The notes beneath the pieces were generated by a model. It had not been told where the DNA came from. It searched no databases and was given only the letters and a program-made list of their open reading frames with translations. Shown in pieces: positions 1 to 45,339 of a DNA stretch of 64,000 nt. Origin of the DNA: Parcubacteria group bacterium (GTDB lineage Bacteria; Patescibacteriota; Minisyncoccia; UBA10092); contig JACPLW010000002.1 of assembly GCA_016186325.1 (NCBI GenBank), positions 1,485 to 65,484 of the forward strand, read 5' to 3'. The first letter of the stretch is position 1. Each line of letters begins with the position of its first letter. The position numbers and the translations under genes are program-made.

Positions 1-261
1 GTTCGAGGCCCTGATGGGCCCTCAGGCCCTAGAAGGGAGCTTGTCGAGGGGTCGCCGACATTTTTTATTTCCGGATAGCGCGCAATTAAAGCATTGGCGA
101 TTGTTCTGCTTGGCTCGTTTATGGAAGGATGGACCGAGATTCCCGCTTGTTTGTTCAAAACCACAACATCGTTGTCTTCATAAACAATAATAAGCGGAAT
201 ATTAAAATCCGGTTTTAATTTTAGTTGACTAGTCATAACGTTTAAACCAAACCGTCTCAAT

Positions 262-900
262 TTAGTCGGGCTTGTATTGTTTAATATATTTATTTTCTTC
301 AATCTGTTCATATCCCATTTTTTTAGCTAATGTCGTGGTCAAACCTTCGTATTGTCTATCTGAATTTTGACTCCTGGAGTTATCAACAATTTCGCTTCGT
401 AAACCACTGGCAGAAATTTTATCAGAATATTTTTTCATAATATTTTTAATAATTCCCCCTCTCATTAATAGCATTGCGCTTCCATACCCCAATCCTTCGT
501 AATCTTTATTGGTTTCGAATTCTCCCTTTACAGTGTTTTTTTCGAAATTGAACATTAATCTTGTCATAGAAATTTCACCTTCGTTGAATAGGCTTGTATT
601 TCCGATATTTGCTGGTGGAACTTCTTGGAATAAACCGACCCTAATCCATATATTTCCGGATTTTCTTGGATAAATTTCATACAATAAAGTAAATATTTTT
701 CCATCAATTTCCAGCGATTCTTCGAAGCGTAGCTGTTCCTGTAATGTAGATTGTAAAAGTCTATATGCGTGCTCCAATATTTTTCTGGTTGATTCTTTAG
801 AAATTTCTCCCTCTATCTCGAAATAACTTAAAATAAGTTTTAATTCTTCAGAATCTATAGTTTCTAATTTATGTAAACTATTCTTTGGCTCTTGCTCCAT
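262..900 (-). CDS. GNAT-family N-acetyltransferase-like protein
   Basis: 212-aa ORF; GLGYGSAMLL resembles the GNAT acetyl-CoA motif (Q/RxxGxG/A); otherwise unassigned. Confidence 0.4.
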   Translation of the reverse strand: MEQEPKNSLHKLETIDSEELKLILSYFEIEGEISKESTRKILEHAYRLLQSTLQEQLRFEESLEIDGKIFTLLYEIYPRKSGNIWIRVGLFQEVPPANIGNTSLFNEGEISMTRLMFNFEKNTVKGEFETNKDYEGLGYGSAMLLMRGGIIKNIMKKYSDKISASGLRSEIVDNSRSQNSDRQYEGLTTTLAKKMGYEQIEENKYIKQYKPD

Positions 901-932
901 AATATATGTTAAAATATTTATTTTCTAAAATG

Positions 933-1004
933 TGGGCGCAGAAGGGATCGAACCTTCGATCTTTACAATGTCAATGTAACGCTTTACCACTAAGCTATGC
1001 GCCC
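933..1004 (-). tRNA. tRNA-Val (anticodon GAC)
   Basis: Reverse-complement folds as a cloverleaf: acceptor GGGCGCA/TGCGCCC, anticodon loop TTGACAT, T-loop TTCGATC. Confidence 0.8.
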
Positions 1005-1221
1005 TTATTAAATTATCAACTTAGTGGTGTTTTTTGATTGAAGTTCGAACATTTTTTGACGAAAATCCGAATTCCGAATTTTAAAATCCACTCGCTCGGG
1101 CGGGCAAAAAGGAAGAGGGTTGGGGGGGAAGGAATTTTTGCCCGCCCTCGCTTTCCGATTCCGATTTTCCCGCCGCCGAATTTCGTGCCAGTAAAACTGG
1201 CGCGCCGCTTACATTTAAAGA

Positions 1222-2400
1222 TTATAATTCTTTTCCCTCGGCTTCAACTTCTTTCTTAAATTTTACCTTATCCAAATTTTCCAGTTGCTTTTCCGTTAAT
1301 CTTACATCAACAATTTTTCCGATACCAACTTTTAGCCCGGTGGCATTTAATAATCTAATCAAGGCCAATTGGTTCATAAGCTGATTTCGCATTTTCTCGT
1401 CTTGATTCAAAAAATCTGGGTTTTCTTCCAGCGCACTCATAGCTTCTTCCATTACTTGTTTATTTTCACCCTTAACAACGCTACCGAGTTTAAATGTCCA
1501 TTTGCCGTCTTGTTGATGAAATAAAACATTTTCCTGACCAACTAAATCAATAAATTTGCCCGATGCTTCAAAATATTCCTTGAATCTCAATAAAAATTCT
1601 CTCGCACAATCTGCAAATTCTTTATCTTTATCCGCTAGCTCAAAAATTGGTTTCAGCTTTTCGTTAAATTTCAAAAAATCTTTTTCATCAAATTCACCAC
1701 CGCCTAAAAGTGCCCTATTCATTTTGTCATAGACTTCTCTATTTTCCTCAATAGATGGGTCTCGCTCGGTATAGCCAGCACTAAAATCTTTTTTATTCGG
1801 GTCTTTAAAAATATCACTCGCTTCCTGTATTGAAATTACACCCTCAATATTTTGCGAAATACCGTTCTGCTCAACACTTATTTTTTGCACCATTACTTTT
1901 TCACGCAAGCAATGTTCTTGTCCGAAATGTTTGTATAATTGTTCATTTTTACCATTTTCACCTTCTACGTATTCATCTGCCATTTTTCTTATTTCAGGGG
2001 GCAACTCAGCTTGTCCAATACTGCTCGCTTTTTCTAAAGCACTTCTATTTAACTTTATAACAAAAGCTGGATTTTGGGGATAAATAAAAACATCATGAGT
2101 GCCACCATGTCCGACTCTTTGCAACTGATTAAAATCAATAAATCCTTCTTTGTTTGGCAATTCACTTATAAAGGATTGAATTTTTATATCTTCACTTTCT
2201 ATGCCGAACTGCTCTCTAATCTCCTCAATCTTATTTTCGTCATCAATTTTTCTTTGGATAGCTTCTATTCGCTTGGTGTTATCAACGCCCTCTTCTTGTG
2301 GCGGTTGACTTGAAACTATTTCAGCTTGTGGTATTTCCGCGGCTTTCTTCTCTTCTTCCGGATTTTTTGGTTGCCTAAATTTTACTTCAAAATTTTCCAT
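1222..2400 (-). CDS. hypothetical protein with protein-kinase-like N-lobe signature
   Basis: 392 aa; glycine-rich loop VGHGGTHDVF followed by VIK lysine; later IDLVGQENVLF resembles a catalytic loop; acidic N-terminus; lies between duplicated tRNA-Val copies. Confidence 0.45.
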   Translation of the reverse strand: MENFEVKFRQPKNPEEEKKAAEIPQAEIVSSQPPQEEGVDNTKRIEAIQRKIDDENKIEEIREQFGIESEDIKIQSFISELPNKEGFIDFNQLQRVGHGGTHDVFIYPQNPAFVIKLNRSALEKASSIGQAELPPEIRKMADEYVEGENGKNEQLYKHFGQEHCLREKVMVQKISVEQNGISQNIEGVISIQEASDIFKDPNKKDFSAGYTERDPSIEENREVYDKMNRALLGGGEFDEKDFLKFNEKLKPIFELADKDKEFADCAREFLLRFKEYFEASGKFIDLVGQENVLFHQQDGKWTFKLGSVVKGENKQVMEEAMSALEENPDFLNQDEKMRNQLMNQLALIRLLNATGLKVGIGKIVDVRLTEKQLENLDKVKFKKEVEAEGKEL

Positions 2401-2470
2401 AAAATTATTTCATTAAATCATCAATTGAAACACCTAGCCCTTTAGCAATTTTCGCCATAGTTTCAATTTG

Positions 2471-2545
2471 TGGGCGCATCTGGATTTGAACCAGAGACCT
2501 TCTCAATGTCAATGAGACGCTCTAACCGGGCTGAGCTATGCGCCC
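2471..2545 (-). tRNA. tRNA-Val (anticodon GAC), second diverged copy
   Basis: Cloverleaf on minus strand; anticodon loop TTGACAT; shares 5' 12 nt and 23-nt upstream flank with the copy at 933-1004. Confidence 0.8.
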
Positions 2546-2565
2546 TTATTAAATTATCAACTTAG

Positions 2566-2637
2566 TGGGCGCACTAGGATTCGAACCTAGAACCGGTCGT
2601 GTATAAGACGACTGCTCTGCCATTGAGCTATACGCCC
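2566..2637 (-). tRNA. tRNA-Ile (anticodon UAU)
   Basis: Minus-strand cloverleaf GGGCGTA...TGCGCCC; anticodon stem GTCGT/ACGAC; loop CTTATAC gives anticodon TAT. Confidence 0.65.
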
Positions 2638-2896: not shown

Positions 2897-4738
2897 TTAC
2901 GCCCCAACCATAATCGCTTCAAACTCATCCCGTTCAATCGTTTCTTTTTCTATCAGCCGCATGGCAATTTCTTTAAGTTTTTTCCTTCTTTGGGAAATGA
3001 TTTTCTTTGCCGTGTCATAAGCAATAGAAAGAAAACTCGTAATTTCTCTGTCAATAAGCTGGGCTACCGATTCTGAATAGTTTTTTTCTGATCCGAGTCC
3101 TCTGCCTAGAAACACCATTTCGTTTTCTTCGCCCAAAGAAATTGGGCCTAGTTTTTCCGACATCCCAAATTCGGTAACCAACTTTCTCGCCAGGTCGGTT
3201 GCTTTTTTAAGATCACTCGCGGCACCGGTAGTAAGTTCTTTGAAAACAATTTTTTCGGCCGCATAGCCCCCCATCAAAACGGCAAGATCGGCCAAAAATT
3301 GGCCTTTGGAATGAAGATGGCGGTCTTCAATCGGGAGCTTTAAAGTATAGCCGGCGGCACTGCCACGGGAAACAATCGAAATTTTATGAACCGGGTCGGC
3401 ATTGGGCAAAACGCCGGCAACCAACGCATGGCCCGCTTCGTGATAAGAAGCAATTTCTTTTTCTTTTTCTGAAAGAATGTGGCTTTTGCGTTCCGGCCCT
3501 AAAAGAACTTTTTCAATGGCATAGTAAAAAGTTTCTTGCTCAACGATTTTTTTGTTCTGGCGGGCGGTTAAAATCGCCGCCTCGTTTATGACGTTAGCCA
3601 AATCGGCGCCGGAAAAACCCGGAGTTCTTTCGGCAACCCTTCTCAAGTTAACTTCCGGAGCCATGGGCTTATCAAGCGCGTGGATTTTTAAAATCGCCTC
3701 GCGATCGTTTATATCCGGAATATCAATCATGATTCGGCGGTCAAACCGTCCGGGGCGAAGCAACGCTGGATCCAAAATGTCGGGACGGTTTGTAGCCGCC
3801 ACAATAATAACGTTGGTCTCACGGTCAAACCCGTCCATTTCAACTAGAATTTGATTGAGCGTTTGCTCTCTTTCATCATGACCGCCGCCAAGGCCCGCGC
3901 CTCTTTGCCTGCCAACCGCGTCAATTTCGTCAATAAAAATGATAGAAGGTGCGAATTTTTTTGCCATATTGAATAAATCTCTAACTCTTGAAGCGCCAAC
4001 CCCGACAAACATTTCCACAAACTCGGAACCGGAAATGTAGAAAAAAGGCACGTTGGCTTCGCCGGCAACAGCTCGAGCTAAGAGGGTTTTGCCGGTGCCC
4101 GGCGCGCCTACAAGAAGAGCGCCTCTTGGAATTCTGGCGCCAATATCTAAAAATTTTTTTGGATTTTTCAAAAAATCAACAATTTCAACGAGTTCTTCCT
4201 TGGCTTCGTTCGCTCCGGCAACATCGGAAAACATAACTTTTTTGCGTCCATCAAACGGCCCGGAAAGTTTGGCTTGCGATTTGCCAAATGAAAATGCACC
4301 CATATTGGCGCGACCGGCCTGCCGCATCATGTACCATATTAAAAATCCGACGAAGATAAACGGCAAAATAATGGGAAGAACCGTGCCGGCCCAAAAACTA
4401 AAACCAACGCTTTGTTCAACTTGAATATTTACATTTTTTAACTTAGCGCCGTCAACGCCATAGTTTTTCAGGGTTTCGGAGAGCGAACTTTCAATTTCTT
4501 TTTTGGCAAAAAATTTATCGTTGTTTTTAGAAGTTATTTCCAAATCATCGTTTTTAACGACAATTTTCGAGATTTCTTCGTTATTTATTTTACTAACCAG
4601 CTCGGAAAGAGCAATCACGTTCGGCTTTTCAAAAGCCGAATTAAGATAAGCAAAAATAAACGCGATCAAAAATAACGCGCCCAAGACAATAAGAATCTGA
4701 TTGATAAACTTTTTATAATTGAATTTAATTATTTTCAT
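2897..4738 (-). CDS. ftsH: ATP-dependent zinc metalloprotease FtsH
   Basis: 613 aa; N-terminal TM segments; Walker A GAPGTGKT; Walker B IIFIDEID; zinc motif HEAGHA. Confidence 0.95.
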
Positions 4739-4789
4739 AATCGGTTTTTGGTTATATTATCATAAAATTCAGAAATAGGCAATTTAATA

Positions 4790-4857
4790 CCCCGTCCCGC
4801 AGCCCCGACGTTGTAGTCGGGGCTCCGACCATAATGCGTCGGAGCTGCGGGACGGGG
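4790..4857. repeat. composite multi-hairpin element (family A outer stem plus two inner hairpins)
   Basis: CCCCGTCCCGCAGC [CCCGAC..GTCGGG] [CTCCGAC..GTCGGAG] CTGCGGGACGGGG; second copy of the same architecture at 54098-54155. Confidence 0.6.
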
Positions 4858-4870
4858 TTATCCTAGAATC

Positions 4871-7799: not shown

Positions 7800-8531
7800 A
7801 TGGAAACACTGCCTAAAACGATGTCTTGTTTCGGAGTGATTATAGAACATAATCAAAGCCCGCCAAGAATTTATCTGGTCCATAATACCGCAGACCCTTT
7901 GGGGCCGAATGGCGAGGAAGGCAAGCCGACTGGCTGGGGACTTCCCGGCGGCGGCAGTTTGGATGGCGAAAGCCCTGATGAAACTGTTCGCCGAGAAGTG
8001 CTTGGCGAAGCCGGATTGGTTACCGAAATTGCGACACGAGGAAAAAATTCCGAATTCGGCGAAATCCTTTTTGAAGATAAACCGCTCATCAATAACAAAG
8101 TTTACATTTTTCATCTTAAAAGGATTGGCGAGGGATTTAGAAATATTGAGGAAACCGGCGAAACCGGAAGGGTTATGCTGGCAGATTTGGGAAGCATTCT
8201 AAAAATGCCCTTGGCTATTAAGAACATCCGTCATGAAGACGGAACAACGGAACAAATCAAAAACCCGGAAGGGATTTATTTTTCCGTCAGAGAAAGAATT
8301 TTCGGGGTACTGGATTATCTGGGTTATGATTTTTATAATCTCATTCCCGATCTTGATAAACTAATCAGTGAAATCAGCCGAAAGGAAGTCGGTAATTACA
8401 TTTACAACTTGCTTGCCGAGGTGATTGCAAAAAAGAATGAACTTTACGAGCGCCGGGCGCGGCGTCTGCGACCTGACGACGACGAGCTTTTGGAAAGATA
8501 CAGCGAGTGGGCCGTAAGGCAGGAGGGATGA
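7800..8531 (+). CDS. NUDIX hydrolase
   Basis: Nudix box GWGLPGGGSLDGESPDETVRREVLGEAGL; SD AAGGAAGAGG precedes ATG 7800 (the ORF track starts at TTG 7770). Confidence 0.8.
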   Translation: METLPKTMSCFGVIIEHNQSPPRIYLVHNTADPLGPNGEEGKPTGWGLPGGGSLDGESPDETVRREVLGEAGLVTEIATRGKNSEFGEILFEDKPLINNKVYIFHLKRIGEGFRNIEETGETGRVMLADLGSILKMPLAIKNIRHEDGTTEQIKNPEGIYFSVRERIFGVLDYLGYDFYNLIPDLDKLISEISRKEVGNYIYNLLAEVIAKKNELYERRARRLRPDDDELLERYSEWAVRQEG

Positions 8532-44880: not shown

Positions 44881-44953
44881 GGGCGACTAGCTCAATCGGC
44901 AGAGCGTCTCGTTTACACCGAGAAGGCAATAGGTTCGAATCCTATGTCGCCCA
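44881..44953 (+). tRNA. tRNA-Val (anticodon UAC)
   Basis: Acceptor GGGCGAC/GTCGCCC; anticodon loop TTTACAC; T-arm ATAGG TTCGAAT CCTAT. Confidence 0.8.
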
Positions 44954-45123: not shown

Positions 45124-45197
45124 GGGCGCATAGCTCAGCTGGTTAGAGCGTCGCATTTACACTGCGAAGGCCCTCCGTTCGAATCGGAGTGCGCCCA
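45124..45197 (+). tRNA. tRNA-Val (anticodon UAC), second copy
   Basis: Acceptor GGGCGCA/TGCGCCC; anticodon loop TTTACAC; T-arm CTCCG TTCGAAT CGGAG. Confidence 0.8.
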
Positions 45198-45247
45198 CTT
45201 TGTGCGGGACACCGAGTAGGTCCGAGGTTCAATCCCTCGAACGCCCA
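45198..45247 (+). other. tRNA 3'-fragment (T-arm CGAGG TTCAATC CCTCG plus acceptor AACGCCC A) directly abutting tRNA-Val
   Basis: No matching 5' half; lies between tRNA-Val and a tyrosine recombinase gene. Confidence 0.4.
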
Positions 45248-45339
45248 TCAAAATTTGATATTTGACACAACAAAAATAAGAAGTTATAATAGAAAAATTA
45301 GATCCGATAGCTCTTTTCAAATGTAAATGAGGGAACTAA

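Follow-up and report, generated by a model that had tools for sequence, protein, structure and literature searches.

A probable decayed mobile cassette with a kinase-like gene between two divergent tRNA-Val genes of a Patescibacteria contig

Introduction

How did a gene for a protein of 392 amino acids (aa) come to lie between two tRNA-Val(GAC) genes that differ through most of their length and yet share an identical 35-bp segment at and upstream of their 5′ ends? The question is raised by one end of a 64-kb stretch of contig JACPLW010000002.1 (hereafter the window, meaning the whole of the DNA analyzed), which comes from a Parcubacteria group bacterium and carries all genes at this end on the minus strand. 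An initial annotation, made from the letters of the sequence, had read the arrangement as a signature of recombination or insertion and the intervening open reading frame (ORF) as kinase-like. In what follows, the two tRNA-Val(GAC) genes are numbered #1 and #2, loci fetched for comparison are designated by an L and a number, and the coordinates of the features are collected in Table 1.

The segment from ~237 to 2565 is probably a 2.3-kb foreign islet made up of one or more decayed mobile cassettes, situated between tRNA-Ile(TAT) and the pseudouridine synthase gene rluD and having the 35-bp repeat as its recombination joint; the way in which the joint formed and the role of the kinase-like protein are what we infer from the comparisons below. 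Patescibacteria, which make up the candidate phyla radiation (CPR), have tiny genomes, and their mobile elements have been little described.

Results

Comparison of the locus with close relatives

The FtsH gene (2897-4738) placed the host in Candidatus Azambacteria, where three relatives had FtsH proteins 86 to 95% identical to that of the window (L032, 95%; L033, 94%; L034, 86%). The gene order in these relatives is FtsH, tRNA-Ile(TAT), one tRNA-Val(GAC), rluD, L19, and tRNA-Leu; the tRNA-Val gene lies 8 to 10 nt before rluD in each of them, and the gene that follows it is a PseudoU_synth_2 gene. All three have a single tRNA-Val and lack the ORF, and none shows the arrangement of the window with the repeat boundary missing, so that the synteny comparison of the tRNA-Val/Ile cluster agreed with the insertion or recombination proposed initially. 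Against L033, homology ran through FtsH, the promoter/terminator block, and tRNA-Ile (85% match over 2696-2566), stopped at 2566, and resumed at 238, which delimits a window-specific segment of ~2.3 kb (~237-2565). Its base composition was also deviant: the G+C content at third codon positions (GC3) was 27.7% in the kinase-like gene and 27.2% in a second gene, ORF212, versus 42.5 and 47.3% in neighboring host genes.

Other DNA was found in the same gap in two of the relatives. L033 has an insertion at 3631-4406 with a gene for a 195-aa membrane-protein-like product on the opposite strand, and L032 has a 5′ tRNA fragment (GGGCGGTTAGCTCAGTGGTAGAGCGG...) at 8186-8239. These differing insertions indicate that the gap between tRNA-Ile and tRNA-Val is an insertion hotspot in Azambacteria.

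The two tRNA-Val genes and the 35-bp repeat

In the tRNA-Val of the relatives the acceptor stem reads GGGCAAT and the T-loop, which is unusual, reads TCCGATT; both tRNA-Val genes of the window differ from this type in acceptor stem as well as in T-loop. Since neither is of the lineage type, the native tRNA-Val has been displaced, and at least one of the two present genes arrived with foreign DNA. The earlier proposal that a kinase gene had been inserted between two tRNA-Val copies is thus upheld as to the insertion but not as to the copies, which cannot have been a preexisting native pair.

The combination of diverged tRNA bodies with an exactly shared 5′ segment, as first described, was reproduced with ARAGORN, Rfam, and a repeat search of the window. 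The bodies are ~73% identical. The repeat search gave a direct repeat of 38 nt with 1 mismatch (990-1027 and 2531-2568), the exact core of which (35 bp; copies A and B in Table 1) is made up of the first 12 nt of the tRNA (GGGCGCATAGCT) and an AT-rich upstream leader of 23 nt; the last 3 nt of copy A are the CCA with which tRNA-Ile ends (...GCGCCCA). The leader occurs exactly twice in the 64 kb, even when three mismatches are allowed, against 0.00 occurrences expected from shuffled sequences. The 12-nt tRNA part is uninformative alone, because generic bacterial tRNA-Val genes, and the tRNA-Val(TAC) gene at 45124, also begin with GGGCGCATAGCT.

Searches for the joint elsewhere gave no second example. 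The leader with the tRNA start (32 nt) was not found in viral contigs, and in all fetched loci a blastn-short search with the leader matched only the generic 12-nt tRNA start. A degenerate pattern for both tRNA-Val bodies matched 28 loci in metagenome contigs, all of them generic bacterial tRNA-Val genes with unrelated leaders, and a gapped tRNA-Ile...tRNA-Val pattern for an empty site or sister allele had 0 matches in metagenome contigs.

These data bear directly on a local history of the two genes. An old duplication of tRNA-Val, whose copies then diverged while gene conversion or promoter constraint kept the 35 bp and into which the kinase gene was inserted later and independently, would explain why anticodon and acceptor stem are shared by both genes. 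A second diverged tRNA-Val pair, both with anticodon TAC, is present in the window (44881-44953 and 45124-45198), which indicates that tRNA-Val duplication recurs in this genome. However, 0% divergence in an AT-rich noncoding 23-mer against ~27% in a constrained tRNA body is the reverse of what such a history would produce, and neither copy resembles the tRNA-Val of the relatives. Furthermore, the leader is not conserved in these relatives, whose spacers between tRNA-Ile and tRNA-Val (2, 54, and 776 nt) are unrelated to it, and the cassette end described below abuts the repeat boundary. We regard a local duplication as highly improbable, the least likely of the explanations weighed here. A stretch after the TAC pair (~45205-45250) resembles the 3′ half of a tRNA, with a T-arm and an acceptor end.

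Intact cassettes and their remnants in the window

The closest homolog of the kinase-like gene with flanking DNA, in L009 (90% aa identity), is preceded by a 70-aa HTH_3/XRE-type helix-turn-helix (HTH) gene that ends 6 nt before it. Homology between the window and L009 (blastn) begins at precisely 2468, a single base away from the tRNA-Val #2 3′ end, and the last ~61 nt of the HTH gene (IETMAKIAKGLGVSIDDLMK followed by the stop; tblastn residues 48 to 71, 92% identity) lie between this tRNA and the ORF. At the tRNA/HTH junction the window reads GCGCCCACAAATTGAA and L009 reads AATCCTACAATTGAA; the shared CCYACAA is a microhomology, which suggests that the HTH remnant was joined to tRNA-Val #2 by an illegitimate deletion or fusion. 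Four independent Logan contigs with this gene or close homologs of it (L063, L064, L010, and L007) all end within 5 nt inside the HTH remnant, at window positions 2427-2432, suggesting an assembly-graph branch point and variant upstream contexts in the sampled populations.

Inverted repeats of 226 to 228 bp, with arms 95 to 99.6% identical, flank the HTH and kinase pair in L009, L012, and L018. The arms are 98 to 100% identical between these loci, and the outer flanks all differ; no target-site duplication was seen at the repeat flanks of the three loci, and their repeats enclose no recombinase. Directly outside the left arm in L018 (3810-5472) and L012 (1-1546), head to head with the cassette, is a gene for a CcrB/XisF-like large serine recombinase of 508 aa, 93.5% identical between the two. 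In L018 this gene is enclosed by its own perfect 120-bp inverted repeats, the outer of which overlaps the last 6 nt of tRNA-Ser(GCT). The L012 contig holds just 55 bp of the outer copy, and the L009 contig starts inside the recombinase-side repeat. Both the HTH gene and the kinase gene of L018 are frameshifted pseudogenes.

The window retains one diverged end of such a cassette, the right one. Its outer ~50 to 75 nt align with the right arm of L009, L012, and L018, positions 1026-1072 matching the outer end of the arm, and the end motif occurs once in the window (1026-1049) against 0.03 occurrences expected. Where the intact arms terminate in ...AACACCGC, that of the window terminates in ...AACACCAC, and this terminus coincides exactly with the start of repeat copy B.

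The same region contains the hairpin with a 13-bp stem within CCGAAT-type direct repeats that had been noticed at the outset. It was confirmed at 1098-1147, with stem arms GGGCGGGCAAAAA and TTTTTGCCCGCCC (1098-1110 and 1135-1147; 100% complementary) around a 24-nt loop and with the CCGAAT-type repeats beside it, and it is the counterpart of an internal hairpin in the intact arm (L009, 1915-1955). The C/T-rich loop lies on the same strand in both, and the G-rich and C-rich stem arms are swapped; the flipping of all stem pairs suggests selection for the hairpin itself. A structured RNA was considered for this region and rejected, since the 194 nt fold no better than shuffled sequence (z = -0.39) and Rfam returned only subthreshold noise.

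Kinase homologs adjoin tRNA genes at other loci as well. In L013, tRNA-Pro is followed by a 5′-truncated HTH gene beside the kinase homolog, and the homologs of L028 and L029 adjoin tRNA-His. In L015, tRNA-Ser(GCT) adjoins, and a 149-bp direct repeat (370-557 and 2240-2388; 96% identical) flanks the HTH and kinase genes. It is composed of two pieces of tRNA, namely the 3′ half of tRNA-Ser(GCT) and another 3′ fragment, together with a terminator hairpin, and the host gene rpsO comes after the second copy; L015 thereby parallels the arrangement in the window, but it is the 3′ side of the tRNA that is duplicated. In L008, a phage-type tyrosine integrase gene adjoins the kinase homolog, and there is an island at tRNA-His that is marked by a repeat of 56 bp.

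L008 lends some weight to an alternative in which the islet is a tRNA island of a tyrosine integrase, the 35 bp being the attL/attR core, with a near-complete tRNA-Val carried along to restore the target and the integrase later lost. Such islands are indeed usually marked by a perfect direct repeat, tens of bp long, that overlaps a tRNA gene (PMC4383910), and the mark is known from tycheposons. Nevertheless, we consider this origin quite unlikely: no integrase is present, the repeat comprises the 5′ end and leader instead of the 3′ part, at the distal copy there is no displaced fragment but a different, complete tRNA, and the sole recombinase physically linked to an intact cassette is a serine recombinase. 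The contents of the islet are two tRNAs, the HTH fragment, the kinase-like ORF, and ORF212, with no recombinase among them, and a tblastn search with the L018 recombinase found no homolog in the 64-kb window.

Sequence family and fold of the kinase-like protein

The kinase-like ORF gave only a subthreshold N-lobe match in Pfam, to YrbL-PhoP_reg (E 0.011; residues 88 to 135), which we take to be a member of the protein kinase clan. Nothing was above threshold in Pfam, NCBIfam, or PADLOC, and the PDB, searched by sequence with the ORF itself and with a profile, yielded no usable match. There were 57 close homologs (43 to 100% identity), and those with a named source were mostly labeled CPR/Patescibacteria. 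A profile search of 1.84 billion cluster representatives enlarged the family to 354 members (197 at E <= 1e-10). The distant members tested likewise had no Pfam domain over the homologous region, and a few distant members are fused to esterase, beta-lactamase-like, or Zeta-toxin-like domains. The family was absent from the viral contigs, GenBank phages, and PLSDB plasmids searched.

Among taxon-labeled long contigs, the family was confined to Patescibacteria, with labels of Taylorbacteria (83% aa identity), UBA2558 (87%), Uhrbacteria (72%), Nomurabacteria, and Falkowbacteria. FtsH of Patescibacteria other than Azambacteria is only ~65% identical to that of the window, so kinase identities of up to 83 to 87% across lineages indicate that the gene has moved horizontally between Patescibacteria lineages. 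The ratio of nonsynonymous to synonymous substitution (dN/dS) of the window gene was 0.06 to 0.17 against seven relatives, and by this measure the gene is under purifying selection. With no family match above threshold, a patchy distribution, variable neighbors, and low G+C content, the ORF fits the initial view that it has no housekeeping role, and no homology to a housekeeping family came to light.

An alignment of 31 sequences had as invariant residues G97-x-G-G-T-H-x-V, K116 (in VIKLN), D285 and N291 (in IDLVGQEN), S307, V308, and K310; the G-loop of the window reads G97-x-GGTHDV. The place expected for the DFG motif, located by sequence pattern and not by superposition, reads LGSVVK, with no Asp, in this alignment. 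A confident AlphaFold2 model built from this alignment (predicted local distance difference test [pLDDT] score, 82.4; predicted template modeling [pTM] score, 0.81) had a bilobal kinase fold. Its top Foldseek match was HopBF1 (E 6e-4; probability, 0.99), followed by OspG and NleH; RIO and PI4K2A were also among the best fold matches, and HipA was not. The glycine-rich loop and VIK lysine from which a kinase N-lobe had been proposed therefore belong to the invariant positions of the family, and the kinase-like reading of the ORF is supported at the level of the predicted fold.

Expression and possible role of the kinase-like gene

An HTH gene stands directly upstream of the kinase gene in L009 and L012 (intact 70-aa HTH_3) and in L015 (diverged HTH). 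This order of an XRE-HTH gene and a kinase-fold gene on mobile DNA is a likeness to HipBA and HipBST, and the pair could accordingly be taken for a HipBA-like type II toxin-antitoxin module with the kinase as toxin and the HTH protein as antitoxin. We think this unlikely: HipA_N and HipA_C signatures are lacking (Pfam and NCBIfam), and the best folds are HopBF1, OspG, RIO, and PI4K2A rather than HipA. In addition, the kinase gene is intact where the HTH gene is truncated (the window) or absent (L013/L024 and many loci without any HTH), which is hard to square with an essential antitoxin. Most likely, the kinase-like protein would be a putative ATP-dependent phosphotransferase of the minimal effector-kinase type, serving as accessory cargo in conflict or host interaction.

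The cassette's own promoter and HTH regulator have been lost in the window copy. A scan of the minus strand from tRNA-Val #2 to the ORF found no terminator-like site, and a promoter-like site in a block conserved in two relatives lies upstream of tRNA-Ile (Table 1). The simplest expectation from these observations is read-through, with the promoter of the tRNA operon probably driving transcription of the kinase-like gene.

ORF212, a second cargo gene

ORF212, which follows tRNA-Val #1 by 31 nt, has four homologs only (a family of five). In three contigs of one homolog, a 68-aa HTH_3 gene ends 4 nt upstream of it, and the homolog locus L069 bears a left-end motif resembling that of the kinase cassette. 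ORF212 is a second foreign cargo gene, present here without its HTH gene. Its product may be GNAT-like, as it contains an EGLGYGSA motif; the structure model is weak (pLDDT 64), with mixed fold matches, and PADLOC and NCBIfam returned nothing for it. ORF212 was also compared with L001, for the gene after the kinase gene there, and with L033; synteny was rejected, there being no similarity.

Formation of the islet

The order from left to right of the host operon is tRNA-Ile, leader, tRNA-Val #2, truncated HTH gene, kinase-like gene, right arm, leader, tRNA-Val #1, ORF212, and rluD. The islet can thus be described as two head-to-tail units, each with the 35 bp, a distinct tRNA-Val body, and a low-GC accessory gene, and relatives of both accessory genes are found elsewhere as two-gene cassettes of an XRE-HTH regulator and an effector. 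The kinase unit is composed of tRNA-Val #2, the last 61 nt of the HTH gene, the intact kinase-like gene, and the degenerate right terminal inverted repeat.

A perfect direct repeat at each copy of which the inner and outer sequences differ points to recombination between a circle and the chromosome within the shared stretch. A circular DNA with the leader and a tRNA-Val would have recombined with the chromosome inside the shared 35 bp; alternatively, two related elements integrating successively at the 3′ end of tRNA-Ile would give the same structure. Afterward, two-thirds of the HTH gene would have been lost along with the recombinase and the left repeat, and with the loss of the native tRNA-Val the cell would have become dependent on the imported copies.

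Several points weigh against this account. No allele with one unit only and no empty site with the same leader was found in the metagenome, viral, and fetched sequences searched. It is not usual for serine recombinases to leave direct repeats of 35 bp, and homologous or tyrosine-type recombination, rather than the serine recombinase of the relatives, may lie behind the joint. Known tRNA-targeting elements duplicate the 3′ part of the tRNA, but here it is the 5′ end that is repeated. With no recombinase in the islet or the rest of the window, the mobility of this copy is historical only. As to the cargo, the missing DFG aspartate means that catalysis is not assured, and intact kinase genes without an HTH gene in the window and in L013/L024 speak against a strict toxin-antitoxin link. 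Finally, the junctions rest on one contig of a metagenome-assembled genome (MAG), and the matching Logan contigs from SRR12113430 and SRR12113424 (100% identity) stop at 2427 and at 1128/1171, crossing neither junction; they were therefore rejected as confirmation of the junctions.

This last point leads to the possibility of an assembly artifact, in which a separate small circle or DNA of another strain sharing the 35-mer was threaded into the contig. The succession of chromosome, 35-mer, insert, 35-mer, and chromosome is the topology that graph threading of a circle produces, and all junction evidence comes from the single MAG contig, with neither joint spanned by the independent Logan contigs. 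Against this, the assemblers commonly used for metagenomes end with k-mers of more than 35, so that reads normally resolve a 35-bp repeat. The kinase gene is, moreover, present at 100% identity in both of these public runs, and the locus would be rearranged even without the insert, given that the native tRNA-Val is gone from beside rluD and that ORF212 is foreign too. An artifact is therefore very unlikely in our estimation, and a decayed foreign islet with the 35-bp repeat as its joint remains the probable explanation.

Other features near the islet

Two further structures lie on the FtsH side of the islet. In the interval from the FtsH stop codon to the promoter block of tRNA-Ile, a segment of ~200 bp (2697-2896) is missing in L033 and L034; it contains nested palindromes, with 22-nt arms (2712-2733 and 2842-2863) around a perfect 14-bp stem (2743-2756 and 2788-2801), and may be a small insertion resembling a miniature inverted-repeat transposable element. 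Between FtsH and a beta-CASP gene, a GC-rich hairpin with 22-nt arms, 95% complementary, occupies 4789-4858 and gave only subthreshold noise in Rfam.

Table 1. Coordinates of the islet and its borders within the window
Feature	Position	Strand	Remarks
rluD start (pseudouridine synthase)	1-236	-	Right-hand host anchor; homology with L032, L033, and L034 picks up again at 238 and extends to 52
ORF212	262-900	-	Low-GC orphan (GC3 27.2%); follows tRNA-Val #1
tRNA-Val(GAC) #1	932-1004	-	ARAGORN; Rfam 75.4 bits; intact, non-native type
Repeat copy B	993-1027	.	23-nt leader and nt 1-12 of tRNA-Val #1
Degenerate right terminal inverted repeat of cassette	1024-1221	-	Outer-end motif at 1026-1049; holds hairpin and CCGAAT repeats
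Protein-kinase-like ORF, 392 aa	1222-2400	-	Intact; cargo gene of cassette; GC 35.0%, GC3 27.7%
XRE-type HTH gene, 3′ remnant	2405-2468	-	Residues ~50-70 and stop; cut at 3′ end of tRNA-Val #2
tRNA-Val(GAC) #2	2470-2545	-	ARAGORN; Rfam 70.1 bits; intact, generic bacterial type, non-native
Repeat copy A	2534-2568	.	nt 1-12 of tRNA-Val #2, entire tRNA-Ile/tRNA-Val spacer, and final 3 nt of tRNA-Ile
tRNA-Ile(TAT)	2565-2637	-	ARAGORN; Rfam 70.6 bits; left-hand host anchor of islet
Promoter-like site TTGCCA-17-TAAATT	2680-2652	-	Upstream of tRNA-Ile; block conserved upstream of tRNA-Ile in L032 and L033

Discussion

The locus yields a recognizable type of cassette, found in several lineages, together with an unannotated kinase-fold family that travels on it. 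A nonexhaustive literature search turned up nothing on three of its aspects: the 392-aa family, which lacks a Pfam model, is apparently undescribed, and so, it appears, are the CPR cassette type, in which a large serine recombinase is linked to long conserved inverted repeats, and the replacement of a native tRNA-Val by imported copies. A wider reading, which we offer as a tentative possibility, is that Patescibacteria carry an undescribed family of very small cassettes with hairpin-rich terminal inverted repeats of ~226 bp, served by a large serine recombinase that lies within 120-bp inverted repeats. Such cassettes would move XRE-regulated effectors (a HopBF1/OspG-like kinase family without a Pfam model and possibly a GNAT protein) between distant CPR lineages, would land at tRNA 3′ ends, and could replace the resident tRNA with an imported one. 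The displaced native tRNA gene would tie the host to foreign DNA, and, if this wider reading were true, tRNA replacement would make the islet impossible to lose. No current idea is overturned by these results, which are useful for annotation and point to a candidate system in which gene flow and host interaction of episymbiotic bacteria can be studied.

Compared with HopBF1, OspG, NleH, and RIO/Bud32, the kinase-like protein shows identities of 10 to 17% and low template modeling (TM) scores, and it differs from all of these in its extra N-terminal helix, its helical insertions, its D-x5-N spacing, and the lack of the DFG Asp. Unlike minimal effector kinases, it has no known secretion context.

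Mobile insertion cassettes consist of passenger genes between inverted repeats of the insertion sequence (IS) type, with no transposase inside. L009, L012, and L018 resemble them in that an HTH and kinase pair lies in long terminal inverted repeats that are conserved across hosts while the flanks differ. They depart from this type in the length of their 226- to 228-bp repeats, which contain internal hairpins and are far longer than IS ends, in the lack of a target-site duplication, and in the neighboring enzyme, a large serine recombinase and not a DDE transposase; the window departs further, having kept one degenerate end. As for elements of large serine recombinases, the recombinase is linked to the cargo in L018 and L012 and is absent from the window.

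The islet can finally be set beside tRNA-gene islands as defined by Islander (PMC4383910) and beside tycheposons, which stack and decay at tRNA genes and some of which use large serine recombinases (Hackl et al., bioRxiv 10.1101/2020.12.28.424599). Like these, the islet is foreign DNA at a tRNA locus, absent from close relatives and deviant in base composition, with a direct repeat that overlaps a tRNA gene. It also shares with them a position in a hotspot that holds other insertions in relatives, head-to-tail stacking, decay, and loss of the recombinase. It is unlike them in having no integrase inside and no regenerated tRNA with a displaced 3′ fragment; instead, the repeat is made of a tRNA 5′ end and its leader, both copies head complete and different tRNAs, the native tRNA is gone, and the whole measures just 2.3 kb. 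As an object, the islet is nonetheless an ordinary one, a decayed mobile-element islet at a tRNA hotspot, and both hotspots and decayed islands of this kind are textbook matter.

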